Positions 31,832-56,716 are shown, numbered from the stretch's first letter. The stretch is 64,000 nucleotides of DNA from Spirochaetia bacterium (GCA_963675665.1 OY776510.1:288001-352000), one strand, 5' to 3'. Notes: a model not told the origin generated them from the letters alone. Program-made: numbers and translations.

Positions 31832-32941
31832 TTATAGTCCGATTTCAGCTCTTGTTGTCGGAACCTTAATCTTGCCTGCTTTCATGTCGGCAATAGCAGC
31901 GTCAACAGCGTCCTTAACTTCCTGGGGAACAACAGAATCAAAGCTGTGGAATTCAGAAATGCCTACAGCATCATCATTAATTCCGAAAACTCTTGTGCCG
32001 CCCTTAAAAGCTCCGTTAACAGCCGACTCAACAGCCAGGTATGTTGCCTGAACAATTTTTTTCTCAGCCGAGGTTAGAACAGTATCGGGAGCGGTAGCAT
32101 TCTGATCTACGTCAACACCGATAGCAAGAACGCCCTCTTCCTTGCATGCATTGATTGCGCCAAGGCCTGTAAGACCGGCGGCATGGAAAACAATGTCCGC
32201 GCCCTGCTGGATCATGGCAAGAGCAAGTTCCTTGCCCTTTGCCTGGTCGGTGAAATCGCCTGCAGTTGCGCTGAGCACTTCAATATCGGGATTCACGCTT
32301 CTTGCACCGGCAATAAATCCTACTTCATATTTTTCAACGGGAGGAATAAACATGCCGAGAACAACGCCGATTACATTGTCGTCATTAAGCTTGTCTGATG
32401 CCGACGCATATTCTTTTGTCATCAGCCCGGCGACAATTCCTGCAAGATATCCGGCTTCATGCTCGTTAAAAACAATACCCATGAAGTTATCGGGAGAACT
32501 TTCTCCTGCGGAAATATCAATACCGGCAAAAAGAGTGTCGGGATTGTTAACTGCCGCTTCGTTTACAGCCTGATCCATAAGAAATCCAACGGCAAAAACT
32601 ACATCAGCACCGTCTTCAGCAAGACCTGAGAGATTTGGAACATAGTCTGTCTGCTGTTTTGACTGAACTACTCTTGCTTCAGTGCCGAGTTCTTTTTCAG
32701 CCATCTTCAGGCCGCCGTAAGCGCCGTCGTTAAAAGATTTGTCGCCGAGTCCGCCAACGTCTGTTGCCATGGCGGCAATCATGCCTTCACCCGGAAGCGC
32801 GGGAGCTGCTGCCTTTGTTTCTTCCGCTGCTGCGGGAGCTTCAGCTGCTTCTTCTTTCTTGCACGACATACTACCTAATGCCACAAGCAAAATCAGGAGC
32901 ACAAGACCGATAATTCTTGCTTTTTTCATTTTTTCCTCCAA
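31832..32941 (-). CDS. BMP-family (PnrA/TmpC-like) nucleoside-binding lipoprotein
   Basis: Lipobox SMSC; GGLGDKSFN, EAGYLAG and IGVDVDQ; own promoter TTGACT-N17-TAACAT near 32972-33000. Confidence 0.92.
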   Translation of the reverse strand: MEEKMKKARIIGLVLLILLVALGSMSCKKEEAAEAPAAAEETKAAAPALPGEGMIAAMATDVGGLGDKSFNDGAYGGLKMAEKELGTEARVVQSKQQTDYVPNLSGLAEDGADVVFAVGFLMDQAVNEAAVNNPDTLFAGIDISAGESSPDNFMGIVFNEHEAGYLAGIVAGLMTKEYASASDKLNDDNVIGVVLGMFIPPVEKYEVGFIAGARSVNPDIEVLSATAGDFTDQAKGKELALAMIQQGADIVFHAAGLTGLGAINACKEEGVLAIGVDVDQNATAPDTVLTSAEKKIVQATYLAVESAVNGAFKGGTRVFGINDDAVGISEFHSFDSVVPQEVKDAVDAAIADMKAGKIKVPTTRAEIGL

Positions 32942-33085: not shown

Positions 33086-34114
33086 TTAAACTATGCTTTT
33101 AAAAAGCGCCTCAATATTCTCAGGAGGAATGTCCGGCAGGATTGCTTCGTGGCTGGGAGACAGGATTAAACCTGTTGGAAAAATCTGTTTCAGCTCAGCT
33201 ACCTTCTTCCGTACATCATCAACCGCACCGTTAACCAGCAGATGCTGGGCGTCAATCCCGCCGCAGAAAGCCACCCTGTTTCCAAATTCATCTTTCAGCG
33301 AACCGGGCTCCATTCCTTTTGCAAGGGCCTGAATCGGATGAATGACATCAACACCGATGTCAATCAAATCGCCTATTATCGGCCTTATGGAACCGCATGA
33401 ATGATGTATAACCTTTAAACCGTATTTATGCGCCTGTTCAACAAGTTTCCCGGTCCCGGGAAGCACAAGATCATTGATAAGTTCTCTGGACAACATCAGA
33501 TTTTCCTGGCTGCCGAGATCATTTCCAATCAGAACAGCATGAAGCTTGCCTTTTGCAGCTTTATAAAAGATTTCATTCGCCTCAAGATAAAACTTGAGTA
33601 TTCGGTCAATCACAGCCTTAAACATCTCCGGTTCAAGGATCATTTTCATCATTGCCGTTTCCATACCGAAGGCGGCACAGGCATCCTGAAAATGCGCTGA
33701 CCAGACAACTCCCAAAACAGCTTTATCTTCCGGCGCAGCCTCAACCGCCCTGAGGCATTCTTCCGGGTCAATGTACTTTTTCGGATCAGGCCAGTCAAAA
33801 TCATCAACAAGAGACGGATCGGAATAATCTTCAAAAAAGCCTGCAGCGGTCAGGGTCCGTTCGACCTCGTCGCCTTTAAACTCTTTTCCAAAATCAAAGG
33901 CCGCATAGATGGCATTACTGGTTGGTGATTTATAGGGAAGCTCTACGGGATAGATATCATCATTTACAGCTTCAGACATTTCCCTGATATCTTTTATCCT
34001 GAAATAATCCAAAAGAGCCTGATGCGCTTCCGGGACCGGAAGTCCCAACCAGCTTGCCGGGTAATCTACGGGCTCTCTGTTTATTGTTGCGTAAAATCTT
34101 TCAATATGTTTCAT
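33086..34114 (-). CDS. URO-D/MtaA-CmuA superfamily protein 1
   Basis: GNDLG, HHSCG, HPIQ, FCGGID, SPSHE and PPENI motifs. Confidence 0.82.
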   Translation of the reverse strand: MKHIERFYATINREPVDYPASWLGLPVPEAHQALLDYFRIKDIREMSEAVNDDIYPVELPYKSPTSNAIYAAFDFGKEFKGDEVERTLTAAGFFEDYSDPSLVDDFDWPDPKKYIDPEECLRAVEAAPEDKAVLGVVWSAHFQDACAAFGMETAMMKMILEPEMFKAVIDRILKFYLEANEIFYKAAKGKLHAVLIGNDLGSQENLMLSRELINDLVLPGTGKLVEQAHKYGLKVIHHSCGSIRPIIGDLIDIGVDVIHPIQALAKGMEPGSLKDEFGNRVAFCGGIDAQHLLVNGAVDDVRKKVAELKQIFPTGLILSPSHEAILPDIPPENIEALFKSIV

Positions 34115-34154
34115 GGTTTTCTTTTACCTGTATTTAAATATTTGGTCATACGAT

Positions 34155-35342
34155 CTACATTTCAGCAATATCATATTCGCCGAGTTCAAGCGGATAGTTT
34201 CCATATTTACGCATTAACCCGACAACATACTCATAACGTTCGGCACTGACATTACTGGGCACGGAATGATCGGACTGAACTATATACCCGCCGCCTTTTG
34301 CCGCATTCAGTTTTGTCAGCACTTCTGCTTTAAGTTCTTCAATAGGCGCATCGGCCCATTTCATGGCATTAATATTTCCGCAGAATCCCATTTTATGACC
34401 ATACTGTTTTCTTATATCAACAACATCAAGGCCGGATTTTGCTTCAAGGGGGTTGTAGGAATCGAGCCCCATCTCAATAAAATCCGGATAGATAGCCGAG
34501 GCATTTCCACAACCGTGATATATGACGGGAAGATTCCTGGAATGACAGTAATCAATTATTGCCTTTACACCGGGTTTGAAATGTCGGCGCCAGTAATCGG
34601 GTGAAAAAAGCATGCCATTAACATAGGCAACATCACCCCAGATAACCATTCCGTCAAGCAGGCCGTCCGCCGCTTGAATCTGGGCTTTCACCAGTTCAAA
34701 GTTAAACTCATTAACGCGTTTCAGAAACTTGCCCAGTTCTTCAGGATACAAACCCATCCACAGCATCATGTTTTCAGAACCGATAATTCTCCAACCTTCC
34801 TCATGGCCCTCGCAAACCGATCCGTAAACCGGGAAATCGGGATGAAGTGATTTCACAGTCTCTATCCAGGGCGGACTGTTACGGGTAATCACTTCGGACA
34901 CGCCTGCAATCTGGTTGTCTCCGCCCTTGAAAAAACGTCTCTCATCCCACGGATCATCAAATTTAAATGCTTTCATTTTGTCAACAGTATCTGTATCAAA
35001 ATGTTCAAAATACGGCATCTGCCTGCCGTCGCGATGCCTGATTACAGCCTCAAAACCGGTTCTCACAAGCATATCGCCGTCATTATCAGAAAGAATTTCA
35101 AAGTCTTTGATATGGGGATCCATGTTGGGAGTAGTGGCAATCCAGTCAAGATCATAATGATAATAAGGACTTGCATCCTTGGGAAGTCCAAGTTCCTGCT
35201 GCCATCGATCTATAAATGTGAGCCAGAAAAAATCACTGAATGGGACTCTGTCAGGTTCCTGATGTGATAGTGCAGTATTCATTCTGCCAAGTTTTTTTAA
35301 ACAATTATCAGTTCTATTCACAGTTATAACCCTTTCTACCAA
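34155..35342 (-). CDS. URO-D/MtaA-CmuA superfamily protein 2
   Basis: H.EPDRVP, WGDVA, YHGCG, NPLE, FCGNI and GGGYI..SDHSVP. Confidence 0.82.
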   Translation of the reverse strand: MVERVITVNRTDNCLKKLGRMNTALSHQEPDRVPFSDFFWLTFIDRWQQELGLPKDASPYYHYDLDWIATTPNMDPHIKDFEILSDNDGDMLVRTGFEAVIRHRDGRQMPYFEHFDTDTVDKMKAFKFDDPWDERRFFKGGDNQIAGVSEVITRNSPPWIETVKSLHPDFPVYGSVCEGHEEGWRIIGSENMMLWMGLYPEELGKFLKRVNEFNFELVKAQIQAADGLLDGMVIWGDVAYVNGMLFSPDYWRRHFKPGVKAIIDYCHSRNLPVIYHGCGNASAIYPDFIEMGLDSYNPLEAKSGLDVVDIRKQYGHKMGFCGNINAMKWADAPIEELKAEVLTKLNAAKGGGYIVQSDHSVPSNVSAERYEYVVGLMRKYGNYPLELGEYDIAEM

Positions 35343-35440
35343 TTGAGTAATTTCTTCAAGTTCAATTTATTGAAATCATTCCGGCAGAACCGCCGGAAAT
35401 ATCTGCCGCGGATAGCCCGCGGCAGTCGTTTTTCGAATTC

Positions 35441-36637
35441 CTACCACTGGGGCGGATAAAATTCTTCTACATCATCAATTGTAATCATATGCTGGGGAAG
35501 GTTTCTGATTGGTTCGATTTCTTTTCCGTTAAACCAGTCTGCTGCAGTTTTTACAGCAAGAGCTCCATCGCCTTCTGCCGTCTGATAAGTGATAGCGTAA
35601 AGCTTGCCTTCCTTAACAAGGTCCATGCCGACTTTGCTGTTTCCGGCTGCGATAACTACAACATCTTCACGTCCGGCTTTTTTGAGTGCTTCAAAGATTC
35701 CAAGAGCCTGGGCCGAGTCATCAGCCGCACAAATGCCCTTAAGGTCATCGCCGAATCGGGTAAGCCAGTCGGATACAAGCTGCATTGTTTTATCAGCTTC
35801 AAATCCGGGAGCCTGTTTGTCGAGGACTTCAATTCCGGGAGCATATTCGGCAAGTTCGGATATCGGACCGAAACATCTTGCAAAATAGGGAGATCCACCG
35901 GGGGCGTGCTGTATATAGGCAACTCCGCCTTCTTTTCCAAGCTTGTCTGCCCAGAGTCTGGCAAGCTTTCTGAACTGACCGAAGTCATCCGGTCCGGTCC
36001 ATGCAATTGCATAATCCATTGCTGCTGCATCAGGAAGGGTGTTGAAGAGTATCAAAGGTATGCCGGCTTTGTTTATTTTTCTTGCCTGCTGGGGAGCTGT
36101 TTTTGCATCTAACGGGATCAGAAGGATCATGTCGGGTCTTTCGTTTATTGCCTGGTCGATCATCTGGTTCTGTACGGCAAGATCCCAGTTCGGGGACTGA
36201 ATCTTGATATCCATTTTGTAGGTATCAGCTACTTTCTGAGCTCCTGTAGTACATGCGGTTGTCCATGGATGGTCGCCGTGTACGATCATTATTACCTTTT
36301 TGCCAATTGCACCGTCTGCCGGGGATGCAGGGATGTTTGTCTTGTTTGTAATTTCTCCTGCAAACTCCATGTCCCACCAGTGCAGTGGATCTTCTTCAGG
36401 TAATGCTGAAGGGTCTGCCGGCCTTTGAGGTACTGTTCTTTTAGTTCCTCCTACCTTGATAAGCGCCTGTCCGTCGGCTGCGGTAAGAGCCAGCGCTTTC
36501 TCATCCAGTGCAAGTGATGCAGCAAGGTTTCCGTTGTCAACTGACGCTGATCCGGCTTCCTGTTGTCCGCCTGCGAACACCATTCCAACTGATGCAGTCA
36601 GCAGCAGTACCATCAAAAGTGTCAAAATCTTTTTCAT
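35441..36637 (-). CDS. Sugar ABC transporter substrate-binding protein (RbsB-like)
   Basis: Signal peptide then AGGQQE; Peripla_BP fold; two GC-rich hairpins downstream (about 35379-35425). Confidence 0.88.
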   Translation of the reverse strand: MKKILTLLMVLLLTASVGMVFAGGQQEAGSASVDNGNLAASLALDEKALALTAADGQALIKVGGTKRTVPQRPADPSALPEEDPLHWWDMEFAGEITNKTNIPASPADGAIGKKVIMIVHGDHPWTTACTTGAQKVADTYKMDIKIQSPNWDLAVQNQMIDQAINERPDMILLIPLDAKTAPQQARKINKAGIPLILFNTLPDAAAMDYAIAWTGPDDFGQFRKLARLWADKLGKEGGVAYIQHAPGGSPYFARCFGPISELAEYAPGIEVLDKQAPGFEADKTMQLVSDWLTRFGDDLKGICAADDSAQALGIFEALKKAGREDVVVIAAGNSKVGMDLVKEGKLYAITYQTAEGDGALAVKTAADWFNGKEIEPIRNLPQHMITIDDVEEFYPPQW

Positions 36638-36669
36638 CGTTTCCTCCGTTTAAAATATTCCAACAGGCT

Positions 36670-37698
36670 TTATGCCTGGTTCTGGACTTCAAGTTCTTTC
36701 ATCAGCTCAGGACGCTGACCTATTATTTTTTCATGTTTATATGCAACCCAGGCTTCATAAAGCACAACTGTTGCAAGAATAATACCGGCTATAAAAATCT
36801 TAACTTCGTTTCCAAGACCGAAGAGAATAATTCCGTTATACAGAACATCAAGCATCAGAATCGCCATAAAGGTTTTAAAAATCCCGCCCTTGCCGCCCGA
36901 CATTGCCGTTCCTCCGATAATTGTTGCGGATATAACGTACATCAGGGAAGATGTTCCCATATTCAGGGTTGCTGCGGCGCTTTCCATGGCAAAGAGGACT
37001 CCGCCGATACCGGCAAAGACACCCGACATGATAAAAGCGGCGATAGTGTATCTGTCGGTATCAATTCCGGCCAGCCAGGCAGTCTGAACATTACCGCCGA
37101 CCATATAGAAGTTCCGGCCTGTCCGGGTTTTTCTCATAAAGAAACTGGCGGCCACAACAAGAATAACCGTAATCAGAACCCTCGGAGTCACCAGGGGAAA
37201 GATCATCATTCCCAGCCAGTCCGAGACTGCAAATGCATCCGGAGTTGACAAGCTTACGGAATTACCTCCGGTAAAAGTATAAATTGCCCCCTGAAGAACC
37301 GTCATCATTCCCAATGTTACGATGAACGAATTGATTTTTGCTTTTGCAACAAGCAATCCGTTAACAAGTCCTATCAGACCGCTGGCAATTATCGCCACGG
37401 GAACACTTCCGCCGAACCCAAGATATTCTTTGAGCCCCAGCCCGAGAATACCTGTAAACGTAATAATGGTACCGATAGACAAATCAAGCTGTCCGATGAT
37501 TAAAATGACTGTAAATCCTATAGCTACAGTAGCATTCATGGCCATTGTGCGCATTATGGTTGTAAGATTAAAAACATTGAAAAACCTGGGGGCAAAAACT
37601 GCCATAAACAGGAACACCAGGCCAAAAAGCAGGAAGATCCTGTTCCGGTCGACCAGTACCAATATTGAACTCTTTTTCTTTATTTTATTATGCATCAT
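36670..37698 (-). CDS. Sugar ABC permease (RbsC-like)
   Basis: LDLSIG, FIVTLG, GGN..A.LAGI and IIGGTAMSGG.G. Confidence 0.9.
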   Translation of the reverse strand: MMHNKIKKKSSILVLVDRNRIFLLFGLVFLFMAVFAPRFFNVFNLTTIMRTMAMNATVAIGFTVILIIGQLDLSIGTIITFTGILGLGLKEYLGFGGSVPVAIIASGLIGLVNGLLVAKAKINSFIVTLGMMTVLQGAIYTFTGGNSVSLSTPDAFAVSDWLGMMIFPLVTPRVLITVILVVAASFFMRKTRTGRNFYMVGGNVQTAWLAGIDTDRYTIAAFIMSGVFAGIGGVLFAMESAAATLNMGTSSLMYVISATIIGGTAMSGGKGGIFKTFMAILMLDVLYNGIILFGLGNEVKIFIAGIILATVVLYEAWVAYKHEKIIGQRPELMKELEVQNQA

Positions 37699-38716
37699 CC
37701 CGTCCCAATGTCCTAAGCGATTTAGCGTTAATTCCGACTACAATAATGAAAATTGCACCCCTGATCATATCCTGTGAGAATGTTCCGATACCCAAAAGCG
37801 TCATGATATTATTCATCAATCCGATAATCAGAACTCCTCCGAGGACCCCGATTATCGAACCTCTTCCGCCGGCAAGGGTCATACCGCCGATAACTATTGC
37901 AGTTACCGCCTTAAAGTCGTATCCTCCGCCGTTGTAATATGCCCCGACCCTGGAAAGCGAGGTAATAGTAAGACCGCCCAGGGTAGCCGTCAGTGCGCAG
38001 ATAATAAAACTCAGACCGATTATTCTCTCAACATTGACGCCAGAAAACTTCGCAGCCTTATTTGCCGCGCCCGTGAACTTCAGCTGCTGACCGAATTTGG
38101 TCCGCTTCATGAGGAAATTCATGAGAATTACGAGTATTATCAGAAATACAACCGGAAGAGCAATCTTGTTAAAAAATCTCAATCGGTAAATACTGTCGAA
38201 AAGATCGCTTGCCCGCTGAGATTTGGCTATCATGTCCGGATAAATCTGCTTATTCACCCATACAAGCCTGATAACGCCCAGAGTTACGTAATTTACAGCC
38301 AGCGTCCAGATAATGGGATTAGCCTTGAACTTTCCTATTGCAACTGCGTTGACAAACCCGATAGCAAGGCCGACAAGTACTGCAACCAGAACTGCAGGAA
38401 GAAATCCGAACTTCAGCATCTGAACGGCAACAATACCGGTCAGGGCCATTGTTGTGGGAACCGACAAATCGGCATAGTGTCCCGAGTAGGTTACAAAAGC
38501 CATACCCACGGCAACAATGCCGAGCATTGAAACCGCATCTACAATATTAAGCATATTCTGCGCAGTCAGAAAATTATTAATAACCCCGAGTGCCTGCAGA
38601 ATAATACCCAGAAGAAGAAACATTGCGGCAACTGCATATATCCCTACTCCATGGAGTATTTTTCCAAGAATATTATATTGAGTGGATCTGCTGTCCACTG
38701 TTTTCGTATTTTCCAT
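37688..38716 (-). CDS. Sugar ABC permease (RbsC-like)
   Basis: DLSV, G.....A..SGV and AIVIGG..L.GG.G. Confidence 0.88.
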   Translation of the reverse strand: MENTKTVDSRSTQYNILGKILHGVGIYAVAAMFLLLGIILQALGVINNFLTAQNMLNIVDAVSMLGIVAVGMAFVTYSGHYADLSVPTTMALTGIVAVQMLKFGFLPAVLVAVLVGLAIGFVNAVAIGKFKANPIIWTLAVNYVTLGVIRLVWVNKQIYPDMIAKSQRASDLFDSIYRLRFFNKIALPVVFLIILVILMNFLMKRTKFGQQLKFTGAANKAAKFSGVNVERIIGLSFIICALTATLGGLTITSLSRVGAYYNGGGYDFKAVTAIVIGGMTLAGGRGSIIGVLGGVLIIGLMNNIMTLLGIGTFSQDMIRGAIFIIVVGINAKSLRTLGRDDA

Positions 38717-40224
38717 CAGCAAATCCCCTCGCCGTTTGCTGCAAGAAGAACACTTTCCTCGGTACAGCCCGATTGATCCATTTCATGTATAAGATGTCCC
38801 TGACGCAGGACTATGACTCTGTTCGACAAGGAAACCAGCTCGGGAAGATCCGAAGAGATTAACAGAATGGTCGTTCCGGTTGCCGCCAATTTTTCTATCG
38901 ACTTATGAATTGTCATTTTGGCGCCTATATCTACCCCCCTGGTCGGTTCATCAAGAATAAGAACCTTCGGTTCCATTGCAAGCCATTTGGCAAGCAGAAC
39001 CTTCTGCTGGTTCCCTCCCGACAGGTTCCCGGTGATCCGCTCCGGATCAGGCGGATAAATTGACAACTCGCCAATCAGGTCTTTTACCTTTTGAAGACCT
39101 TTGGCTTCCTGATAAACACCATTCGGTGAAAGCTGCGGTATTATTCCGGCAAGGATATTTTCTTTCACATCAAGTCTCAATGCAAGACCTTCAGTTTTCC
39201 TGTTTTCAGTAAGATAGGTTATACCGTCTTTGAGGGCATCGGCCATTGTCCGCGGCCTGATTTCCTTATTGTCAATTAATACCCTGCCCCCGGATCTGTC
39301 ATCAAGACCGACCAAAACCCTTGCAAGCTCACTTCGTCCGGCGCCCGAAAGCCCGCAGATACCGAGAACTTCGCCCTTATGAGCTTTGAAAGACACATTA
39401 TGAAAGAAACCGTACCGTGAAAGATTTTCAACCTCAAGCCTCACTTCCTGCTGGGAATGGCTTTCATGGGAATAGAATTCCTTTACAGAACGGCCCACCA
39501 TCATCTGAACAAGCTCTTCACTTGTAACGTCTTCAATATTTCTTGTATCGATGCGTTTCCCGTCGCGCATGACCGTCACCCTGTCGGCTATCTCAAAAAT
39601 CTCCGGAAGATGATGTGATATATAAATGATAGCAAGACCGCGGTTTTTAAGCCTTTTGATTATTTCAAACAGCCTTTCCACTTCTTCCCGGGATAAAGCA
39701 GAAGTAGGCTCGTCCATAACCAGAATGCAGGGATTATTACCAAGAGCCTTGCCTATTTCTACCAGCTGACTTTCATGCTGGCTGATTTCTTCAATTTCGA
39801 TATCCGGGTCAAGATGCTCAAGCCCTACCAGCTTCAGACAACGCTTTGTCTCCTTGAAGATTTTTTCCTTGTCGAGAAACAACCCTTTTTTGGGAAGCCG
39901 CCCGACAAGCACGTTTTCGGAGATGCTCAACGGAAGGGCAAGACTCAGCTCCTGATATATCATCTCGATGCCGTTCCTTTTTGAAGCTACCGGGCTATAC
40001 AGCCTGGTTTCTTTTGAAGCAATATATATTTCACCTGAATAATCATCAAAAGATCCGGCAATAATCTTCATCAGGGTCGATTTACCTGCGCCATTCTCGC
40101 CTATAAGAGCATGAACTTCTCCTGCCCTTACATCAAAATCAACATTATCCACGGCGAGTGTGCCCGGGAAACTTTTACTGACACCCTTCATCCTTAATGC
40201 TATACCTAATTCCTGGTCACTCAA
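38716..40224 (-). CDS. Sugar ABC ATP-binding protein (RbsA-like, two ATPase domains)
   Basis: GENGAGKST, DEPT, LSGGNQQK and DEPTRGVDIGAK. Confidence 0.93.
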   Translation of the reverse strand: MSDQELGIALRMKGVSKSFPGTLAVDNVDFDVRAGEVHALIGENGAGKSTLMKIIAGSFDDYSGEIYIASKETRLYSPVASKRNGIEMIYQELSLALPLSISENVLVGRLPKKGLFLDKEKIFKETKRCLKLVGLEHLDPDIEIEEISQHESQLVEIGKALGNNPCILVMDEPTSALSREEVERLFEIIKRLKNRGLAIIYISHHLPEIFEIADRVTVMRDGKRIDTRNIEDVTSEELVQMMVGRSVKEFYSHESHSQQEVRLEVENLSRYGFFHNVSFKAHKGEVLGICGLSGAGRSELARVLVGLDDRSGGRVLIDNKEIRPRTMADALKDGITYLTENRKTEGLALRLDVKENILAGIIPQLSPNGVYQEAKGLQKVKDLIGELSIYPPDPERITGNLSGGNQQKVLLAKWLAMEPKVLILDEPTRGVDIGAKMTIHKSIEKLAATGTTILLISSDLPELVSLSNRVIVLRQGHLIHEMDQSGCTEESVLLAANGEGIC

Positions 40225-40354
40225 TTTTTATCCTCTTTCAAATAAACTAATACAGTTTAATGGTAAACCCGTAAAAATTATCACTCAACAGTGAATATTA
40301 GTTATTCATCTGTAATTTCTTGATACTTCTTGTAATTTTTTACTGTTCCGGTGC

Positions 40355-40678
40355 TCAATCAAGATGATAGAGCTCTTCCATATCAGCCCACCATTCTCCG
40401 TCTTTTCTGGTCTCAAGAGGCTTCTGCATCGGCATCATAATATCCCACCATTCCCGCGTCTTAGGATCATCAGCCATTTTTCTCATATCAGCCTCATAAT
40501 CTGAACCGACATACTCAAAATAGGCAAATAACATTCCGTCTTTATAGAAAATGGAATAGTTTCTGATATTACACGCGCTTATCATTGTGTTTATTTCAGG
40601 CCAGACCTCTGCATGATATTTTTTATAACTGTCAAAATGTTCCGGTCTTACTCCAATAAGCTGTCCGAATCTTCTCAC
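40355..40678 (-). CDS. rhaM: L-rhamnose mutarotase family protein
   Basis: YKKYH..VWPE, IRNYSIF, LFAYFEY and WW..M....H. Confidence 0.82.
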   Translation of the reverse strand: MRRFGQLIGVRPEHFDSYKKYHAEVWPEINTMISACNIRNYSIFYKDGMLFAYFEYVGSDYEADMRKMADDPKTREWWDIMMPMQKPLETRKDGEWWADMEELYHLD

Positions 40679-40939
40679 CTCATATCCTCCGTTTTTAATA
40701 TCCTAACACGAATTTTTTACATGTCAAGTTATTTTGTTAAAATTTTATCCTCATTGGTAATATTTTTAACAAATTTTAGCTAATATTTTTGATAAACAGG
40801 GTTTTTTGGGGATTATACACCCTCAAACATCATTTATACTGGCTGTATTTGCTAAATTTTGCTAAAATATTTTTTATTTCAATTGACAACATCATAATAA
40901 GTGATAAAATACTGCTAAATTATTTTACCTGGATTGTTT

Positions 40940-41965
40940 ATGAAACCGAAATTACGAGATGTTGCAGAACGCGCAGGCGTATCAATTACAGCCGCTTCGA
41001 TGGCTCTTTCAGAATCCGGCAGAATTTCTGACGAAACAAGAAAGAAGGTTCTGAAAGCCGCAGAGGAACTGGGATATAAACGCAAACAGAAATCAAACAG
41101 GATTACGAGTTTTAATCATGTCGGAGTTTTGGTCAGCACTGATTATAAATGGGCGTTCATCTGGAAGTTTATCCGTCCGCTAATCGAGCAGATAGAAGTG
41201 GAGCTTAAGGCATATGATCTTAATCTCATCCTGATACCCATTTCTCACGATTCCTCACCGGAAGCAATATATAAAAAGATAACATCGTCTGGCTCCGGCG
41301 CGGTAATTTCGCTTCATTACGGCAACGACGACCTTTTTACAAGGCTTGAAAACACCGGAACCCATGTTATAGTAGTCATGAAATCGGACTTTCATGACCG
41401 TTATTACTCGGTTTGCGTAGACGACTTTCAGGGAGCATACGAAGCCGGCTGTCATTTAATCAGGCTCGGACATAAAAAAATTGCTTATGTAGGTGTAGAA
41501 CGCCCCGAGCTGCCTGCTCTTTCCAACGACAGGTTTATCGGCTTTAAAAAGGCAATGGATGTTAACGGTTTGACGCTTCCGGACGAAAACATATTTGAAT
41601 TCGAGACGGGGCACATGGACAAGCTCAGAAAAGATCTGTATCCGGTATTCAACCCGGGAAAAACCGAACGTCCTACTGCGGTATTCTGTCTCGATGATGA
41701 CCTTGCGCTCAGAGTAGTTATGGCGCTTCGCGATATGACCCTTTCCATCCCTGAAGATGTTTCCATCATTGCTCCCGGCGACGTGCTTGATTATAATTTG
41801 CCCTATATACCGCCAATCACCACCATGCAGATAGACACATCCTATATGGGGAAAATAGTCGCACAGATGCTTGTAAACAGAATAGAACATTCTCCGGACT
41901 CGCAGCACGGATTGAAAGTTCAGCAGCACCTTGTAGAACGGGGCAGCTGCCGGGCTTTAAAATAA
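40940..41965 (+). CDS. LacI-family regulator
   Basis: LRDVAERAGVS..S.AL HTH; TTGACA-N16-TAAAAT upstream. Confidence 0.9.
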   Translation: MKPKLRDVAERAGVSITAASMALSESGRISDETRKKVLKAAEELGYKRKQKSNRITSFNHVGVLVSTDYKWAFIWKFIRPLIEQIEVELKAYDLNLILIPISHDSSPEAIYKKITSSGSGAVISLHYGNDDLFTRLENTGTHVIVVMKSDFHDRYYSVCVDDFQGAYEAGCHLIRLGHKKIAYVGVERPELPALSNDRFIGFKKAMDVNGLTLPDENIFEFETGHMDKLRKDLYPVFNPGKTERPTAVFCLDDDLALRVVMALRDMTLSIPEDVSIIAPGDVLDYNLPYIPPITTMQIDTSYMGKIVAQMLVNRIEHSPDSQHGLKVQQHLVERGSCRALK

Positions 41966-41968
41966 CAG

Positions 41969-43273
41969 TCAGCCCGCATACTCTTCTGCAATATGGGATG
42001 CAATTGTCTCCCATTCCCACAGCCGCCGGGGGTCATATCTGACAGTAGAAATATCCTTCATTATCAGTTCAACATTGCATTTACCTTCGGTTTTATCAAG
42101 AAAATCACGAATCTCCTGCCCGGCCCGTTTCGGGTCCCAGCGGCTTTCAGCAAGAATGGCAGGGTTCGGTTTGCGGCTCATTACATAATAAGGTCCAAGA
42201 TTTTCAATCGCCCGTTCAGTCTTTGACCACGGACTTACCGAAACCTTTCTCAGATTCGGTATGCGTTTGAGGATATCGGCTTTTCCGTCAAGGGGCTCAC
42301 AGCAACCGTAATATGTATGCTTCCATCTTTTGAGCCAGCGCAGATCATGTTCAATCGCAAAATCCCGGTGCATTTCCGGCGACACTTCGCTGAAAATCTG
42401 CGCATTTGAGCATCCCCACATGTTTTCAGGTTTAATATAACCAGGATTATATTCGTCGCCCGGCAGGTCGGAAACATAGCCGTAACCCCCGGAACCTATT
42501 CTTGTATTATCACAGTCAAGCGAAAGAAGATTTTGATCTACAAACTGATCAAGCTCGATCATCCATGCGTCTACCATTCTGTCTACAAATGCATGAACCA
42601 TATCCGGTCTCATGACAAGATCCATCATGGCCTCCTGCACCCCCCACCAGCGGATTAGATAGTCCCATGGGGTAAACCAGATATGGGTTTGCCCGACTTT
42701 TTTTACCGGTATAATACCTTCATACAAGTCTTTCATAGCATTGAAACTGTACTCGGTAGCTTTTTCATAGTGGCTGACCACAGGCATTTTAATCTTCTCG
42801 AGATCATCCATACTTTTTATCTGAATCTCGAAATGCCTGGAATAGATATCGTTCTCAGCATCGGTTTTAACAACCTTTACTTCTTCAATAATCCCGAAAT
42901 CAGTGCTGTGGATAACCAGCGGGCATTCAATAAACGGATTCACAATCATATCCCCGGGCATATGATTCCATTGGTAAATGGTCCTTCTAAGCCTGAGTTC
43001 AAGCTCCCTTGCCCATGGATGTTCCGTCTTTAATGTAAGCTCATCGTTGACATTCATTTCATGCCAGGGGATTTCATTTATCCAGATCATCGGCCGCCTG
43101 GACTTCAAATCATTTAAATTCTTCCAGAGCTCCGCTCTCTGCATGTTCACCGAATCAGAGGATATTTCGGCAATTTCCCCGCCCAGCTTTTTCAGAATTT
43201 CTTTTTCTTTATCTTTCAAGATTATTTCCGCCTCAACAGGGGGGGCTTCTTTATGACTGGGATCGTGCAGCAT
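41969..43273 (-). CDS. Divergent URO-D-like TIM-barrel protein with a YGCCE motif
   Basis: DLVMRPDMVH, VSPEMH.DF, YYGCCEPL, SPW, KPNP and MKDIST. Confidence 0.6.
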   Translation of the reverse strand: MLHDPSHKEAPPVEAEIILKDKEKEILKKLGGEIAEISSDSVNMQRAELWKNLNDLKSRRPMIWINEIPWHEMNVNDELTLKTEHPWARELELRLRRTIYQWNHMPGDMIVNPFIECPLVIHSTDFGIIEEVKVVKTDAENDIYSRHFEIQIKSMDDLEKIKMPVVSHYEKATEYSFNAMKDLYEGIIPVKKVGQTHIWFTPWDYLIRWWGVQEAMMDLVMRPDMVHAFVDRMVDAWMIELDQFVDQNLLSLDCDNTRIGSGGYGYVSDLPGDEYNPGYIKPENMWGCSNAQIFSEVSPEMHRDFAIEHDLRWLKRWKHTYYGCCEPLDGKADILKRIPNLRKVSVSPWSKTERAIENLGPYYVMSRKPNPAILAESRWDPKRAGQEIRDFLDKTEGKCNVELIMKDISTVRYDPRRLWEWETIASHIAEEYAG

Positions 43274-43367
43274 CTTCTCAACTCCTGATTAATTATCTGA
43301 TCAATTGATAAACCTGATATATTCAGTCGTCAATCCGCTTGTCTATTTTTTACAGTTGGTTTGTAAA

Positions 43368-45080
43368 TTATTGATGTGATTTTCTGTCGCCCTGGTTGTA
43401 CTCTGACGGGTAGACCCCGGTATATTTCCTGAAAGTGTTATAAAAATAGTTTGCATCGGTGTATCCAACTTCGGCAGCTATCTGGTTAGCCTTCATTCCG
43501 GTTGTGTTTAAAAGCTCCTTTGCTTTTCTTATTCTTAAAGAATTCAAATAGCGGGAAAAGTTCTCGCCGGCTTCTTCTTTGAATAATTTGCCGAGATAAG
43601 CCGGAGACAGATCAAACTGGTAGCCTAAAACCTTCAACGACAACGGATTCTGATAGTTATTGTCAACATACTCAACAATCTGCTGAATAAGGGTCCTGGG
43701 TCTTGCACGATCGATTGATAAAAGGTTAATGATTTCAAGTGCTGTGCTCTTCAGCCAGTCGAGAGTTTTCTCAATGGTTTTATACTGAAAAAGCTGTTTA
43801 AACAGTGATTCATAACCGCCTACTATTTCCTTTTCATTCATTTTATTTGTTCTGATAATATTCAGCAGATTGGAAAGCAACTCAACAGCAAAACCGCGAA
43901 AATACTCCTCACTGATAATTCTTCTGATTGTGAAACTCTGATAGATCCCGGAAAAAAAGCGTTCTACCGCCTCACGGTTGCATTCAAGAACCATCTGATA
44001 CAGGTAATCAAGATCAATTTCTTCCGGTGTATTGGATTCGAGAAAAAAGTCATCGACATTGTCTGCCGTTAGCATCTGAATGGGCAGATACCTGAATGGT
44101 TCTACTTCAAGTCCGTTAAACCAGTCTATTGCAAGCTGAATTGCAAGCGCTCCGTCAAGCCTTGCAGACTGATAGGTTGTTAAATCAAGCCGTCCCTCTT
44201 TGAGCATCCTCATTCCGACAAAACTGCTGCCGTTTGCTGCCCGAACAATGTCTGTCCGACCGGCTTCTTCCAGGGCACGGTTTATTCCCTGCTGGGCTAC
44301 ATTGTCATCAGCGCTGACTATTCCCTTCAGCTCACTGCCGAATTCTTCTATCCATGATTTAACCTGCATGTAAGTTTTTTCTTTATCAAGCCTGGTACTC
44401 TCAACCCCAAGAAGCTTCATCTCCGGAGCAATTTCGTTCAGCTCTGTAATGAGGCCCCATTTCCGTCCAAGGTAAGCCGATGAACCGGGGATATGACATA
44501 TAACTGCATAACCGCCGCAATAGTCCATCATTCCCGCAAAACGGCCGGCTAGCACCCTGAACTGCCCCCAGTCGTCAGGCCCTGTCCAGGCAAGAATATA
44601 TTTCAATGCCTCGGGGTCCGGAACCAGATTACTTGCAACAACAGGAATTCCGGCCTTATTAATTCTGCGGTAACAGTCTACACTATCGGAAGCACTCTCA
44701 GGAACAAGAATAATCAGATCGGGTTTTGATTCTATGGCTTCTTCAACCTGCCGGGCCTGCGTATCCATATCCCAGCCGGAATGAAAAAACACCAGTTTTA
44801 TCCCGAAAGGTTCAGCTGTTTCTTTCATTCCGGCTTCATATTCAGAGTGATAAGGGTGTTCCGGTAAAAGACAGATAACATTCTTGCCTTTTGCCCCATC
44901 CATGGGCGACGGCGGAATATTTTCCTTCTTTACTCCCCAGCCGGGGTATTCTTTATCATACCAGTGAAGACGATTATTCTCAGGGTAGTCTTCAGGATGT
45001 TTCGGTCTTTGGGGAATTTCTTTTCTGCCGCCCACCCAGAGAATAGGCTTTCTTCCGTCTGCATGATTATACGGACCCAT
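43368..45080 (-). CDS. AraC-family regulator fused to an N-terminal sugar-binding-protein domain
   Basis: About 345 aa Peripla_BP domain with no signal peptide; C-terminal LSPAYLGKLFK..G and IAAEVGY.D..YF..FRK.TG..P HTH. Confidence 0.88.
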   Translation of the reverse strand: MGPYNHADGRKPILWVGGRKEIPQRPKHPEDYPENNRLHWYDKEYPGWGVKKENIPPSPMDGAKGKNVICLLPEHPYHSEYEAGMKETAEPFGIKLVFFHSGWDMDTQARQVEEAIESKPDLIILVPESASDSVDCYRRINKAGIPVVASNLVPDPEALKYILAWTGPDDWGQFRVLAGRFAGMMDYCGGYAVICHIPGSSAYLGRKWGLITELNEIAPEMKLLGVESTRLDKEKTYMQVKSWIEEFGSELKGIVSADDNVAQQGINRALEEAGRTDIVRAANGSSFVGMRMLKEGRLDLTTYQSARLDGALAIQLAIDWFNGLEVEPFRYLPIQMLTADNVDDFFLESNTPEEIDLDYLYQMVLECNREAVERFFSGIYQSFTIRRIISEEYFRGFAVELLSNLLNIIRTNKMNEKEIVGGYESLFKQLFQYKTIEKTLDWLKSTALEIINLLSIDRARPRTLIQQIVEYVDNNYQNPLSLKVLGYQFDLSPAYLGKLFKEEAGENFSRYLNSLRIRKAKELLNTTGMKANQIAAEVGYTDANYFYNTFRKYTGVYPSEYNQGDRKSHQ

Positions 45081-45125
45081 AAACAGATAATAACAGATTT
45101 GAAAGCTTTTCCCAAATACTTTAAA

Positions 45126-46379
45126 TCACAGACTGAACTCTCTTGCCGCCTCAAACATTGCAAGTATGTTCTGCGGCGGGATATCGGGCATTATGTTATG
45201 AATATTGGCAAAGACAAAGCCTCCGCCCGGGGCAAGAATTTCCATCCGCCTGGTTGCTTCCGCCTTAACCGCAGAAACCGACCCGTTTTTAAGAATATCC
45301 CGGACCTCCATTCCACCTCCCCAGAAAACCATATCAGATCCGAATTCCTTCTTTAACCGTTCCGGCTCCATATTCAGACAGTTTGTCTGAACCGGATTGA
45401 TTATATCAATTCCGGAATTTATAAAATCAGGAATATACTGATAGACGGAGCCGCAGGTATGAAGAAATGTTTTCATCCCGGTATTTTTATGCACATAATC
45501 AGACAGTCTCTTTCTATGCTCATGAAAAAGCTCCCGGTAGACAGCAAGACTCATAAACGGTCCCGAATCCATGCCCAGATCATCCCCAAAACGGATAATA
45601 TCAACAATATCTCCGACACTTTCACAGACCGCTTCAAGGCTTTTCATGTGCCGTTCCATTAATAATTCAAGAAGGACAGAAACCTTGTCTTTCCCGGTGT
45701 ATAAATCCATCAGGAAATTATCCATCCGGCGCAGAAAGGTTCCCCATTCAAAAAGGTTGCAGCCTATTACAACCATCAAAGCCTTGTCAGTCTGTGCTCT
45801 CAGCTGTATTGTCCTTTCACGAAGCTGTTCATAAAAATCCGGTTCTGAAGCATGATCCCACGGGCTATGGACAAAATGAGCCCATAAAACCTTATCCATT
45901 GCTTCATCCAGCGCCTCATCCATTGCATTTCGGCCTTCCGGATAACCTTCCAGAAACGGAAATACCGTCTGATCAAAAAAGGTAGCGCTCTCAGGCATTA
46001 CTGCTATAATCTCTCCGTTGCCGTGCCTCGCTTCCCAGGCGCCGGCATCATTTTTTTCAGGTTTAAACCATGAGGGATAATATGCAGTTTTTCCTGTCGG
46101 CAGTTTCATTTGAGTCCAGTCAGTTTCACTGTTATTGAAACTGCGTCCGATATCAAGAACATCAACCCCGAGAAGATCAATCAGCTCCGGCCCGGGCTGA
46201 GCAAGCTGCTGTACAACATCATAAACAAGAGTAGGATCATCCTTCCGTCCCAGATACTCCACAAGATTACGGTGCGCTATGGCAGAAATGCCGGCACTTG
46301 GATTGGAACCGAGATCAATCGGGGGCCTGTCAGGCTCTTTATGATTGATTGACAGCAGTACTCGATCTCTTGAAGTCAT
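45126..46379 (-). CDS. URO-D/MtaA-CmuA superfamily protein 3
   Basis: MTSRDRV..H.EPDRPP, FGDDLG, LHTCG, NPVQ, GGGFVF..HNI and PPQNI. Confidence 0.85.
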   Translation of the reverse strand: MTSRDRVLLSINHKEPDRPPIDLGSNPSAGISAIAHRNLVEYLGRKDDPTLVYDVVQQLAQPGPELIDLLGVDVLDIGRSFNNSETDWTQMKLPTGKTAYYPSWFKPEKNDAGAWEARHGNGEIIAVMPESATFFDQTVFPFLEGYPEGRNAMDEALDEAMDKVLWAHFVHSPWDHASEPDFYEQLRERTIQLRAQTDKALMVVIGCNLFEWGTFLRRMDNFLMDLYTGKDKVSVLLELLMERHMKSLEAVCESVGDIVDIIRFGDDLGMDSGPFMSLAVYRELFHEHRKRLSDYVHKNTGMKTFLHTCGSVYQYIPDFINSGIDIINPVQTNCLNMEPERLKKEFGSDMVFWGGGMEVRDILKNGSVSAVKAEATRRMEILAPGGGFVFANIHNIMPDIPPQNILAMFEAAREFSL

Positions 46380-46623
46380 TAAAATCCCCCAAATATAAAG
46401 GTTATGTTTATCAATAATTTTGCTTTATTTTACCTTACCATATCACCTGTATTTTAGCATATAGTCTTCTCAAGTCAAGAAAAATGTTTATATTTAATTT
46501 ATATATTCAAATTTTACCAACTTCTTTATCATATTTTACTATTTTCCGTTATATTTTACCACTATTTTACTTGTTTAATGATAAAATATATTATAATATA
46601 TTTTATCATTACAAGGAAGAACC

Positions 46624-47631
46624 ATGGTTAAATTATCCGATATTGCACTGGAGGCCGGGGTATCCGTCACAACTGTTTCGATGGCGCTCTCGGGAAAAGG
46701 CAGAATCTCTACTGAAATAAGACAGAAGGTGCAGAAGTCTGCAGACAAACTTGGTTATGTAAAAAAGAAAAGATGTTCTTCCGAATCAGTCTGGGCAGTA
46801 CTTGTTCCGATGTCCGAGCAATGGGATTCAATATGGCATTTTATCAGACCTGTCATAGATAACATTACAAAAACCGCCGTCAGGAACGGGATTGGCTGCT
46901 GCATAATTCCTGTTTATCCGGAGTTTACTGTTTCAGATGTTAAATCATCCTTACATCATCATAAAGCTGCATCCGTATTCTCCATACACTTCGGAAATAC
47001 AGAACTTTTTGAGAGTCTTGAGAAAGAAGGGATTCCGGTTGTTGTAATTAATAATTCGCAATATCAGGAAGGATATTTCTCAATCTGCGTAGACGACTTT
47101 CAGGGGGCATATGAGGGAACAAAACACATTATCAATAAAAAGCATACTGCTATTGCATTTCTGGATTACCCGCGTCCAATGCTGCCCAATCTGGCATCAG
47201 ACAGATATTTCGGTTTTTTAAAGGCAATTGAAGAAGAAAATATTCAGTTCAAAGAAGAATGGAAAATTCAAATAGATCTTGATGATATTACCGAGCTAAA
47301 AAACAGGTTAAAAAAGATGCTTGAAAAAACACCGGCGCCTACGGCTTTCTTTGTTCACGATGATTTCATGGCTAACCGTTTAATATTTATACTTAATGAA
47401 CTCGGTCTGTCGGTTCCCGAAGATATTTCAATTACTGCTCCGGGAGATACATTGAATTACTCTTTCCCTGAAACGGCTAGAATAACCACAATGAGCATCA
47501 ATACAGGGTTGATGGGCAAATATGCCGCAGACATGATGCTTGAACGTGAATCAGGCGGGTACCAGGAAAGTCATGTTCTAAAAATAAAACAGCAGCTTAT
47601 TATAAGAGGCTCAACTCTCACCAGAGACTGA
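46624..47631 (+). CDS. LacI-family regulator, paralogue of 40940-41965
   Basis: LSDIA..AGVSVTTVS HTH; shares W.FIRP, CVDDFQGAYE and APGD..ITTM with the other LacI. Confidence 0.9.
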   Translation: MVKLSDIALEAGVSVTTVSMALSGKGRISTEIRQKVQKSADKLGYVKKKRCSSESVWAVLVPMSEQWDSIWHFIRPVIDNITKTAVRNGIGCCIIPVYPEFTVSDVKSSLHHHKAASVFSIHFGNTELFESLEKEGIPVVVINNSQYQEGYFSICVDDFQGAYEGTKHIINKKHTAIAFLDYPRPMLPNLASDRYFGFLKAIEEENIQFKEEWKIQIDLDDITELKNRLKKMLEKTPAPTAFFVHDDFMANRLIFILNELGLSVPEDISITAPGDTLNYSFPETARITTMSINTGLMGKYAADMMLERESGGYQESHVLKIKQQLIIRGSTLTRD

Positions 47632-47675: not shown

Positions 47676-48629
47676 TTATTCCGGACGCTCAATCATAAAG
47701 TCTACGCCGTCGGCTTTCGGAGCGCGCGAACGGCGGACCAGACCGGCCACTGCAACCACAGTAAGGACATACGGCAGGATGATAAACAGTTCTTCGGGAA
47801 TATTAAGTTCCAGGGCTATCTGCAGCCTGACCTGAAGCGCGTCCGCAAAACCGAAAAACAGGGACGCGATAAAAGCGCCTATGGGGGCCCATCCGCCTGA
47901 AATCATGGCGGCCATCGCAATAAATCCGCGGCCGCTGCTCATTCCCTCGGTAAAAGAAACAGCGTTTTCAATCGAAAGATATGCGCCGGCAAGGCCCGCC
48001 ATCATTCCCGAAACAAATACGCCGATATATCGCATCCTGTACACGGAAACACCGATTGTTTCCAGCGCCAGAGGATGTTCGCCTGCGGCCTTTATATGCA
48101 GGCCGAGCTTTGTCCTCTTCAGAAAGAATGTAAAAAATATTATCAGAATAAAACTGAAGTATATAATCGGAGTCTGGTTGAAAAATATCGGCCCGAGAAC
48201 CGGTATTTTTGAGAGACCCGGTATGGCCCACTGAAAATCCTTAAGCGAGTGTACGATAGGATCGGTTGTTCCGGGATGGCCGTAGATTACAACCATCAGG
48301 TACCGGACAAGTCCAAACGCAAGGATGTTCAGGACAGCGCCCGAAACTACATGCTCTAAATGGAGACTTACCGTGGCAAACGCATGCAGAAGCGAAAAAA
48401 CGCCCCCGGCCAGAACGGCAAACAATAGGCCGAGCCACGGGTTGCCGGTAAACATAGCGCCGACAAGACCGGTAAAGGCCCCGACTATCATCATTCCTTC
48501 CATAGCGATATTTACAACGCCGGATCGTTCACAGATAGTCGCTCCTATAGCTGCAAGGGTTATCGGGGTAGAAAGCCTGACAGTAGCGACAAGCAGTTGA
48601 GTATTAAAAATCTGGGCAAGCACTTCCAT
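47676..48629 (-). CDS. Nucleoside ABC permease (NupC/YufQ-like)
   Basis: ERSGVVNIAMEG, GEHP.A and GRGFIAMAA. Confidence 0.9.
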   Translation of the reverse strand: MEVLAQIFNTQLLVATVRLSTPITLAAIGATICERSGVVNIAMEGMMIVGAFTGLVGAMFTGNPWLGLLFAVLAGGVFSLLHAFATVSLHLEHVVSGAVLNILAFGLVRYLMVVIYGHPGTTDPIVHSLKDFQWAIPGLSKIPVLGPIFFNQTPIIYFSFILIIFFTFFLKRTKLGLHIKAAGEHPLALETIGVSVYRMRYIGVFVSGMMAGLAGAYLSIENAVSFTEGMSSGRGFIAMAAMISGGWAPIGAFIASLFFGFADALQVRLQIALELNIPEELFIILPYVLTVVAVAGLVRRSRAPKADGVDFMIERPE

Positions 48630-54619: not shown

Positions 54620-54757
54620 TAATTTCTCCTTTTTTTCTTTTGCGTACAATTCAGCCCGCATTTCGGATTCTCGATACGCTTCCTGTTTAGTCCATATATT
54701 TCTTTTCACGTGAAAATATTCGATGTTTTGACATCTTCTTTTTTTACGATATTATAA

Positions 54758-56704: not shown

Positions 56705-56716
56705 GGCTTCCTCCTC

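Follow-up and report, generated by a model that had tools for sequence, protein, structure and literature searches.

We report here an analysis of a 64,000-nucleotide stretch of DNA from a Spirochaetia bacterium (hereafter the window; positions 288,001-352,000 of a single 5.15-Mb contig, 43% G+C, OY776510.1 of assembly GCA_963675665.1), centered on a block at 33086-47631 in which genes for a sugar importer stand together with genes for four proteins of the uroporphyrinogen decarboxylase (URO-D) structural superfamily, P0001 to P0004. Coordinates are positions in the window unless they are marked as genomic, and the closest relatives of the proteins encoded in the window are found in Spirochaetales genomes. 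A sequence-only reading of this DNA had listed for the block a complete CUT2 (RbsABC-type) ABC importer, a RhaM-family mutarotase, three regulators and the four URO-D-superfamily proteins, and all of these genes were recovered in place by open reading frame calls and Pfam searches, with P0003 being recognized through its fold and by profile (Table 1). The motifs that it had picked out, HHSCG, YHGCG, LHTCG and YGCCE, are all seen in the translations, and by Pfam there is indeed no kinase, isomerase, aldolase, glycosidase or corrinoid protein inside the block. Having weighed the comparative and structural evidence presented below, we lean, if only by a little, towards the view that the block serves to remove the O-methyl groups of methylated L-fucose-type sugars by an oxygen-free, corrinoid-dependent reaction, with the corrinoid carrier and its activase supplied in trans.

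The importer consists of a Peripla_BP_4 solute-binding protein, two BPD_transp_2 permeases and a single tandem-domain ATPase encoded in one operon, the composition of a CUT2 system. The nearest solved relatives of the solute-binding protein are CUT2 sugar-binding proteins, and with a score of 56.6 against the RbsB equivalog cut-off of 337 it is not RbsB itself. The mutarotase is, on its PF05336 match, a member of the RhaM family, and scores 50.6 bits with the RhaM equivalog TIGR02625 (cut-off 99.6). The sensor of the AraC-type one-component regulator is 43.7% identical over 341 amino acids (aa) to the binding protein of the importer; given this resemblance, the two probably recognize related ligands. 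A third copy of this sensor/binding-protein sequence lies at the extreme end of the contig (Table 1).

Comparison with three genomes of the same genus shows that the block is a discrete inserted unit. In these genomes the flanking genes, namely those for EamA, an ATPase, two permeases and a Bmp/PnrA binding protein, are contiguous, and the 14.5-kb block sits precisely between the last permease and the Bmp/PnrA binding protein, thereby splitting a Bmp/PnrA-type ABC operon into two parts. The original spacer is largely preserved at the right-hand junction, and no target-site duplication is evident at the junctions. Orthologues of P0003 with 78-80% identity occur on different contigs in two of the same-genus genomes, and none was found in the third, which is 100% complete. 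The genome as a whole encodes 12 proteins with PF01208 matches in addition to P0003, from which simple arithmetic gives an expectation of about 0.04 such proteins per 14.5 kb; hence, the presence of four in the block is far beyond chance. We consider it marginally probable that the block constitutes a self-contained, horizontally acquired module for the anaerobic use of O-methylated L-fucose-type (6-deoxyhexose) sugars.

Table 1. Genes of the block, its surroundings in the window, and related features elsewhere in the genome
Feature	Position	Strand	Basis or remark
P0001, URO-D-fold protein with HHSCG, 342 aa; candidate substrate:corrinoid methyltransferase	33086-34114	-	PF01208, E 1.4e-21
P0002, URO-D-fold protein with YHGCG, 388-395 aa; candidate methyltransferase	34155-35342	-	PF01208, E 5.9e-19
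CUT2 solute-binding protein	35441-36637	-	Peripla_BP_4, E 3.2e-40
ABC permease	36670-37698	-	BPD_transp_2, E 4.5e-31
ABC permease	37688-38722	-	BPD_transp_2, E 3.2e-34
Tandem-domain ABC ATPase	38716-40224	-	ABC_tran, two stretches, E 3e-53
RhaM-family 6-deoxy-L-hexose mutarotase	40355-40678	-	PF05336, E 1.6e-32, 112.3 bits
LacI-family regulator 1	40934-41965	+	LacI and Peripla_BP_3; syntenic in loci L023 and L094
P0003, divergent URO-D-fold protein with Y-G-C-C-E, 434 aa; candidate methyl-fucose:corrinoid methyltransferase (methyltransferase I)	41969-43273	-	Fold; no Pfam or NCBIfam match
One-component regulator, sugar-binding-protein-like sensor and AraC helix-turn-helix	43368-45080	-	Peripla_BP_4 and HTH_18
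P0004, URO-D-fold protein with LHTCG, 417 aa; candidate methyltransferase	45126-46379	-	PF01208, E 1.9e-16
LacI-family regulator 2	46624-47631	+	LacI and Peripla_BP_3; edge of the inserted block
Bmp/PnrA binding protein (one part of the split operon)	31832-32941
Last permease of the split operon	47676-48629
Other part of the split operon	47676-51477
GH1 gene	28904-30340		Outside the block
TAXI-type TRAP system	54758-59650		NMT1_3 binding protein, DUF1850, fused DctM
DDE transposase gene	56871-58028
Corrinoid hub (L110)	genomic 2,066,550-2,073,188
Hub corrinoid protein, 228 aa	genomic 2,068,048-2,068,734		TIGR02370, 200 bits (cut-off 215); DxHxxG motif
Hub RACo activase	genomic 2,071,332-2,073,188
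Hub MtaA-like protein, 453 aa, full-length			136.6 bits, under cut-off
FucI	genomic 2,270,911-2,272,698		90% identical to FucI of locus L021
URO-D and corrinoid-protein pair with DUF1638-GGDEF fusion (L114)	genomic 5,110,983-5,114,183
Third copy of the sensor/binding-protein sequence	genomic 5,149,597-5,150,559

Four divergent members of the URO-D superfamily

P0003, the member that the sequence-only reading had termed divergent, is the key gene of the block. Recognition by sequence comparison failed for this protein: it has no match in Pfam or NCBIfam, its profile recovers nothing better than an E-value of 0.11 among the PDB sequences, and hhalign relates its family to the P0002 group with a probability of just 3.3%. 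Its membership was settled by a fold search and by hidden Markov model (HMM) comparison with neighboring proteins. The AlphaFold model, based on an alignment of 103 sequences, is of high confidence (predicted local distance difference test, pLDDT, 95.7; predicted template modeling score, pTM, 0.93), and its top solved matches are the uroporphyrinogen decarboxylases proper (HemE) and methanogen MtaA, with a Foldseek probability of 1.00 and template modeling (TM) scores of 0.46-0.62. The HMM of the P0003 family additionally matches 12 URO-D neighbors belonging to a P0001-related group (E 6e-7 to 5e-4 among 1006 proteins), and the neighbors of P0003 in the ESM Atlas are solely clusters labeled 'putative URO-D domain'. 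As judged from the predicted structure, P0003 thus belongs to the URO-D structural superfamily.

A near-invariant Y-G-C-C-E replaces the H-x-C motif throughout the P0003 family, which is both large and widely distributed. Among 8000 scored candidates, 6804 are homologues at E <= 0.001, and the family forms 1918 clusters at 50% identity. The best 120 homologues share 66-86% identity, their sources including Spirochaetota, Planctomycetota, Acidobacteriota, Hydrogenedentota and Bacillota; over more than eight phyla identities are 60-86%. The P0003 and P0002 families both keep 65-80% identity between Spirochaetota, Acidobacteriota, Planctomycetota and Chloroflexota. Such conservation is exceptional among sugar-catabolic enzymes and points to strong constraint or to recent horizontal spread, or to a combination of the two.

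The fold of P0002, like that of P0003, was assigned from a model, and P0001 and P0004 were assigned by PF01208 alone. The match is to the C-terminal half of the PF01208 profile in each case, corresponding to profile positions 126-342 in P0001, 161-346 in P0002 and 160-345 in P0004, out of 346. P0001 matches the MtaA structure 4ay7 (E 2.1e-5), with its H-x-C aligning with the H-I-C of MtaA, and its residues H238, C240, S321 and H322 are invariant across 13 relatives. The H-x-C motif and a later histidine show no variation within the P0001 and P0002 groups. The zinc ligands of MtaA are a histidine and two cysteines. The H-x-C motif, which the sequence-only reading had compared to the zinc site of the MtaA-type enzymes, is kept in three of the four URO-D proteins, and in these three the third ligand, a cysteine in MtaA, is a histidine. 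P0002 is 388 aa long in public gene models, which start seven codons downstream of our call in the window, and the only name carried by its 5812 homologues is 'uroporphyrinogen decarboxylase (family protein)'. Its model (pLDDT 93.1) is matched equally by HemE and MtaA (TM 0.61-0.72), with MetE coming next. Orthologues of P0004 were seen solely in Spirochaetota among the loci examined, and the genome contains two further paralogues of it.

The PF01208 matches and the public label of the P0002 relatives raise the possibility that these are genuine uroporphyrinogen decarboxylases of heme or siroheme synthesis. With the hemE equivalog TIGR01464 (cut-off 302.95) P0002 obtains 20.8 bits, and P0001, P0003 and P0004 have no match at all; even the best of the nine remaining PF01208 proteins of the genome reaches just 55.6 bits. 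Taken together with the half-profile match and the sugar-transport context, this led us to reject a HemE identity, whose probability we regard as practically nil. The MtaA/CmuA models (TIGR01463, NF040654 and NF041608; cut-offs 235-600) gave 40.2 bits for P0001, 33.8 for P0002, 46.5 for P0004 (against the mtaA_cmuA cut-off of 235.4) and none for P0003. By the profile comparisons, therefore, the four proteins are neither HemE nor true MtaA enzymes, with all NCBIfam scores lying at 21-47 bits against cut-offs of 235-600; the grouping with characterized HemE that would have refuted the sequence-only reading is not seen. The block proteins resemble the MtaA/MtbA/CmuA enzymes in fold, in the H-x-C alignment of P0001 and in the weak model matches, but differ in the low scores (33-47 bits), the lack of conservation of the third zinc cysteine, N-terminal halves unrelated to the profile, and a context devoid of coenzyme M genes and of an adjacent corrinoid-protein gene.

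Genomic links to fucose and to corrinoid methyl transfer

Of 392 confirmed stretches with P0003 relatives, from one genome per species, the best 80 were used for a survey of the neighbors within 10 kb. Open reading frames were called roughly and clustered, the clusters were named by Pfam, and the 45 commonest neighbor clusters were inspected. Further URO-D paralogues are present in 19 of the 80 loci by clustering and in 22 by HMM, and CUT2 ABC systems in 19. The other recurrent neighbors are a GH29 fucosidase (13/80), an MFS transporter, RhaM and a GFO oxidoreductase (10/80 each), a MetE-like protein (8/80), RhaT and Amidohydro_2 (6/80 each), FucI, SSF, DUF1638 and MTHFR (5/80 each) and GH95 (3/80). 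At least one of GH29, GH95, FucI, RhaM and RhaT occurs in 28 of the loci. A neighboring MFS protein clears the FucP equivalog cut-off (285.5 versus 280.4), as does a FucI neighbor that of FucI, and the best match of the Amidohydro_2 protein is L-fucono-1,5-lactonase, under the cut-off. Across 201 Spirochaetota genomes, FucI is found in 14 of the 17 that bear the P0003 family, as against 29 of the 184 that are free of it. Judging from these neighborhoods, the sugar linked to the P0003 family is L-fucose and not rhamnose. Rhamnose was dropped as a candidate, since neither rhamnose isomerase nor rhamnosidase forms a cluster among the 45 commonest whereas fucose markers do. The linkage to sugar ABC systems and rhaM noted in the sequence-only reading recurs in other genomes, other phyla included, as seen from the above counts; its proposal that a methylated deoxysugar is O-demethylated by means of a corrinoid supplied in trans likewise gains comparative support, shorn of the rhamnose option.

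In a tree of the URO-D neighbors we recovered a P0002 group (12 loci from six phyla), a P0001-related group (13 loci) and a P0004 group confined to Spirochaetota. P0003-like, P0002-like and P0001-like genes occur together in eight of the 80 loci, from Spirochaetota, Bacillota, Lentisphaerota and Acidobacteriota, and two loci, L023 and L094, are syntenic with the window. Six Chloroflexota loci (L053, L067, L084, L087, L095 and L097) encode four conserved proteins of about 290-358 aa that have no Pfam match (clusters c15, c28, c36 and c37); these adjoin P0003-like, MetE-like and Lyase_1 genes and show no match to the URO-D-group profiles.

Three lines of evidence tie P0003 to B12-dependent methyl transfer, namely operons in Chloroflexota, the co-occurrence of the family with the rare corrinoid activase RACo, and predicted docking. 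With regard to the first, tblastn detected small corrinoid-protein genes in six of the 80 loci, all from Chloroflexota, in two arrangements. One combines a corrinoid protein, DUF1638, a P0003-like protein, a pterin-binding methyltransferase and MTHFR. The other (L046) is a tight operon, with gaps of 9-42 bp, of P0003-like, lactonase-like, GFO, corrinoid-protein and P0002-like genes, in which the P0002 orthologue directly follows the corrinoid-protein gene. The Spirochaetia genome itself has a corrinoid hub (L110; Table 1), comprising a PocR/AraC regulator, a corrinoid protein, an MtaA-like methyltransferase, a CobW-like GTPase and a RACo activase, so that both the carrier, which the sequence-only reading had supposed to be supplied in trans, and the activase are available. 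Similar hubs are found in a Bacteroidota genome (AraC, corrinoid protein and RACo) and in a Christensenellaceae genome (PocR/AraC and corrinoid protein). A second URO-D and corrinoid-protein pair is located at 5.113 Mb; adjoining it is a fusion of DUF1638 to a GGDEF diguanylate cyclase, possibly a signaling output coupled to a corrinoid methyltransferase.

As to the second line, 26 of the 27 genomes bearing the P0003 family encode RACo. It was found in all 17 of the sampled Spirochaetota with a P0003-superfamily match, defined as E <= 1e-30, a criterion that admits distant paralogues besides orthologues, versus 39 of the 184 without one; FucI-positive Spirochaetota lacking a P0003 match have it in 11 of 29 cases. 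It is also present in all five carriers from five other phyla, each of which additionally has short corrinoid proteins, and in four of five further Bacteroidota carriers, compared with 8 of 251 genomes in a Bacteroidota background sample that includes one carrier (G003). This was the only genome of the 251 with the P0003 family, and known carriers were therefore used for the Bacteroidota count. The RACo query matches one of 14 control genomes. Finally, predicted docking of P0003 with the corrinoid protein of the genome scored 0.69 (runs of 0.73, 0.69 and 0.69), with the best of three controls reaching 0.04; 116 of 157 solved complexes attain the docking mark, as do 2 of 215 mismatched pairs, figures that are a rough guide because our own alignments were used. 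At least 96% of the contacts agree between the runs, the pLDDT of the partner is at least 82, and the predicted interface places a conserved face of P0003 (C325, 296-301 and 407-412) against the residues flanking the DxHxxG of the carrier. In full, the predicted contact regions are 212-221, 296-301, 325 and 407-412 in P0003 and 75-84, 119-124, 166-174 and 196-206 in the carrier. The docking thus supports a predicted binding of P0003 to the corrinoid protein.

The principal alternative is that these are corrinoid-independent URO-D-fold enzymes, either metal-dependent or cofactor-free, which catalyze some other reaction on L-fucose-type sugars, such as decarboxylation, isomerization, epimerization or ether or ester cleavage, with the corrinoid link being an ecological coincidence. 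HemE, which has the same fold, is cofactor-free and is matched by the P0003 and P0002 models just as MtaA is, but the N-terminal, substrate-binding half of its profile is unmatched in the block proteins. Likewise, RACo is common in some lineages anyway, as in the family-free Spirochaetota, but its near-universality among family carriers contrasts with its frequency in the FucI-positive non-carriers and in the Bacteroidota sample. The lack of a corrinoid gene in the block and the minimal operons of FucP, P0003-like and GH29 genes, which need no extra partner in cis, fit this alternative; the corrinoid protein within P0003-like/P0002-like operons of Chloroflexota and a predicted docking that beat its controls speak against it. 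On balance we judge it unlikely, while being the foremost competitor of corrinoid-dependent demethylation.

Several observations nevertheless weigh against a corrinoid-dependent demethylase. The corrinoid protein, the activase and a pterin methyltransferase are absent from both the block and the 64-kb window, and corrinoid genes in cis are confined to a single phylum. The genome has no dedicated pterin-dependent methyltransferase II, its sole pterin-binding (PF00809) proteins being a 299-aa FolP-like and an 820-aa MetH-like protein. The zinc triad of MtaA is not kept, with its third cysteine aligning beside the invariant histidine in P0001, and P0003 lacks the H-x-C histidine. By the rough gene calls, 23 of the 80 loci are without any marker gene, some of these being short contigs, and the minimal Bacteroidota operons fit an enzyme acting on plain L-fucose equally well. 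The co-occurrence counts take in related genomes and so overstate independence: of the 17 Spirochaetota carriers, 12 are drawn from a single family whose members all have RACo, although the remaining five are all RACo-positive as well, and one Bacteroidota metagenome-assembled genome has the P0003 family without RACo. The docking score expresses how confident the model itself is, and complexes of a barrel with a B12 domain are known in other families. Lastly, a sugar methyl ether offers a poorer leaving group than an aryl ether does, making for a demanding reaction.

The genome encodes ten divergent URO-D paralogues besides P0003, each situated in a sugar-type transport operon, with such operons including an MFS transporter with AraC, a TRAP system with aldolases, and two CUT2 systems with xylose-isomerase-like barrels. 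This set is consistent with a single carrier hub serving many substrate-specific methyltransferases. Outside the block, seven paralogues of this divergent kind, each within a transport or catabolic operon of sugar type, are located at 71.8k, 973k, 1046k, 1829k, 2409k, 3801k and 4910k (loci L106-L113). The 0.97-Mb paralogue lies inside a sialic-acid-like locus with TRAP, HpcH and DHDPS genes, and the 2.41-Mb paralogue adjoins a DegT aminotransferase, GFO oxidoreductases and an MttB-family methyltransferase. FucI is encoded in the genome (Table 1), and GH29, GH95, RhaT, the MetE-like protein and the Chloroflexota-type MTHFR were not found with the queries used; given the presence of FucI and the failure to find the queried fucosidases, the organism probably scavenges free sugars.

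It is also conceivable that the proteins are corrinoid methyltransferases with a different donor, such as an S-methyl, N-methyl or methoxy-aromatic compound co-acquired with fucose, or that some paralogue is a methyltransferase II acting on a thiol. The known URO-D-superfamily methyltransferases use thiols, aryl ethers and methyl halides (PMC10418091). The H-x-C of P0001, P0002 and P0004 is reminiscent of the thiol-activating site of MtaA, the P0002-like genes and pterin methyltransferases appear in differing corrinoid arrangements, and an MttB-family gene is present in another sugar locus of the genome. Set against these are the transporters, since CUT2 importers and FucP carry monosaccharides, the resemblance of the regulator sensor to a sugar-binding protein, and neighbors that across phyla encode fucosidases and enzymes of fucose catabolism, with no recurring aromatic or amine catabolic genes among the 45 commonest neighbor clusters. 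We therefore hold a different donor to be quite improbable, more so than a corrinoid-independent chemistry.

Outside the block, the remainder of the window contains no fucose or rhamnose catabolic gene; a GH1 gene lies nearby (Table 1). The G+C content falls to 0.35-0.37 at 52000-64000 from about 0.45 over the preceding 40 kb. This part of the window includes the TAXI-type TRAP system, which is split by the DDE transposase gene between DUF1850 and the membrane component.

A candidate demethylation route for methylated sugars

The following route would be consistent with these observations. The CUT2 ABC system would import the free modified sugar, with the binding-protein-like AraC regulator sensing the ligand class of the importer and RhaM equilibrating the anomers. 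P0003, and probably P0001, P0002 and P0004 too, would then act as substrate-specific methyltransferases, binding the sugar at the C-terminal face of the barrel and transferring its O-methyl group to the Co(I) of the small corrinoid protein. This carrier would be kept active by RACo, both being provided by the separate hub, whose MtaA-like enzyme might hand the methyl group on to an acceptor, and the freed L-fucose would enter the FucI route. We infer each of methyl transfer, substrate, division of labor among the four paralogues, and acceptor.

Methyl ethers block the ordinary catabolism of sugars such as the 2-O-methyl-fucose and 2-O-methyl-xylose of pectic rhamnogalacturonan II and the methylated deoxyhexoses found in the polysaccharides of algae, cyanobacteria and bacteria. 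Cytochrome P450 enzymes reportedly demethylate sugars oxidatively, requiring O2 and a redox partner and releasing formaldehyde, whereas the block, with proteins of an unrelated fold, would carry out a non-oxidative methyl transfer usable by anaerobes. The two resemble each other in the problem addressed, a methyl ether that blocks the catabolism of algal or plant sugars, and in that the remover is encoded within a sugar-utilization locus; the P450 in question is the 6-O-methyl-D-galactose demethylase of marine bacteria (PMC6292453). This was the sole route for removal of methyl ethers from sugars that we found in the literature, and it needs oxygen. A full-text literature search, with most subscription journals and supplements lying outside its reach, found no corrinoid-dependent or URO-D-type sugar demethylation, and 2-O-methyl-fucosidases of family GH139 are on record (PMC12282258).

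A close functional parallel is with the anaerobic corrinoid-dependent aryl methyl ether O-demethylases, of which OdmB and VdmB (PMC10418091) are examples. These systems combine methyltransferase I, a corrinoid protein, methyltransferase II and an activating enzyme, and in them, as proposed for P0003, a URO-D-superfamily methyltransferase is the substrate-specific part. Shared features are the small DxHxxG corrinoid protein and the RACo-type ATP-dependent activase in this genome, the many substrate-specific paralogues per genome, and, in the Chloroflexota relatives, a pterin-binding methyltransferase and MTHFR beside the P0003-like gene. Nevertheless, the context of the block points to a sugar (alkyl) methyl ether rather than a phenyl methyl ether, the P0003 subfamily is unrecognized by Pfam and NCBIfam, the enzymes lie within sugar-import operons with the carrier and activase genes 1.7 Mb away, and a dedicated pterin methyltransferase is lacking. 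The type 1 mlp clusters of non-methanogens, which pair MtaA-like with corrinoid proteins and for which Kountz and Balskus proposed a role in methyl-sulfur or methyl-selenide metabolism (PMC10418091), recall the URO-D and corrinoid pairs of this genome at 2.069 Mb and 5.113 Mb; however, mlp proteins are more than 25% identical to characterized enzymes, whereas the block proteins are far more divergent and reside in sugar operons. The text of that article mentions neither sugar, carbohydrate nor DUF1638.

Beyond the block itself, we put forward, with somewhat less than even confidence, a widespread hub-and-spoke organization in which URO-D-fold methyltransferases, each in its own sugar-uptake operon, feed a single corrinoid/RACo hub, the P0003 family being the methyl-fucose:corrinoid methyltransferase. 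The organism appears to be a sequenced isolate, its genome being one 5.15-Mb contig, and together with the same-genus relatives without the block this makes the proposed role of the block directly testable. If corrinoid-dependent demethylation is indeed that role, it would provide an anaerobic route for the removal of sugar methyl ethers and a function for two very large conserved families currently labeled 'hypothetical' or 'uroporphyrinogen decarboxylase'. It would also account for corrinoid proteins and RACo in anaerobic sugar fermenters without methylotrophy, and would link the breakdown of glycans to the one-carbon (C1) pool, that is, to methyl-tetrahydrofolate, methionine or methylated thiols. 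The hub-and-spoke organization would, in turn, represent a new enzyme family, extend corrinoid methyl transfer to a new class of substrates, and constitute an unrecognized route by which the methyl groups of polysaccharides enter the C1 metabolism of sediments, soils and guts.

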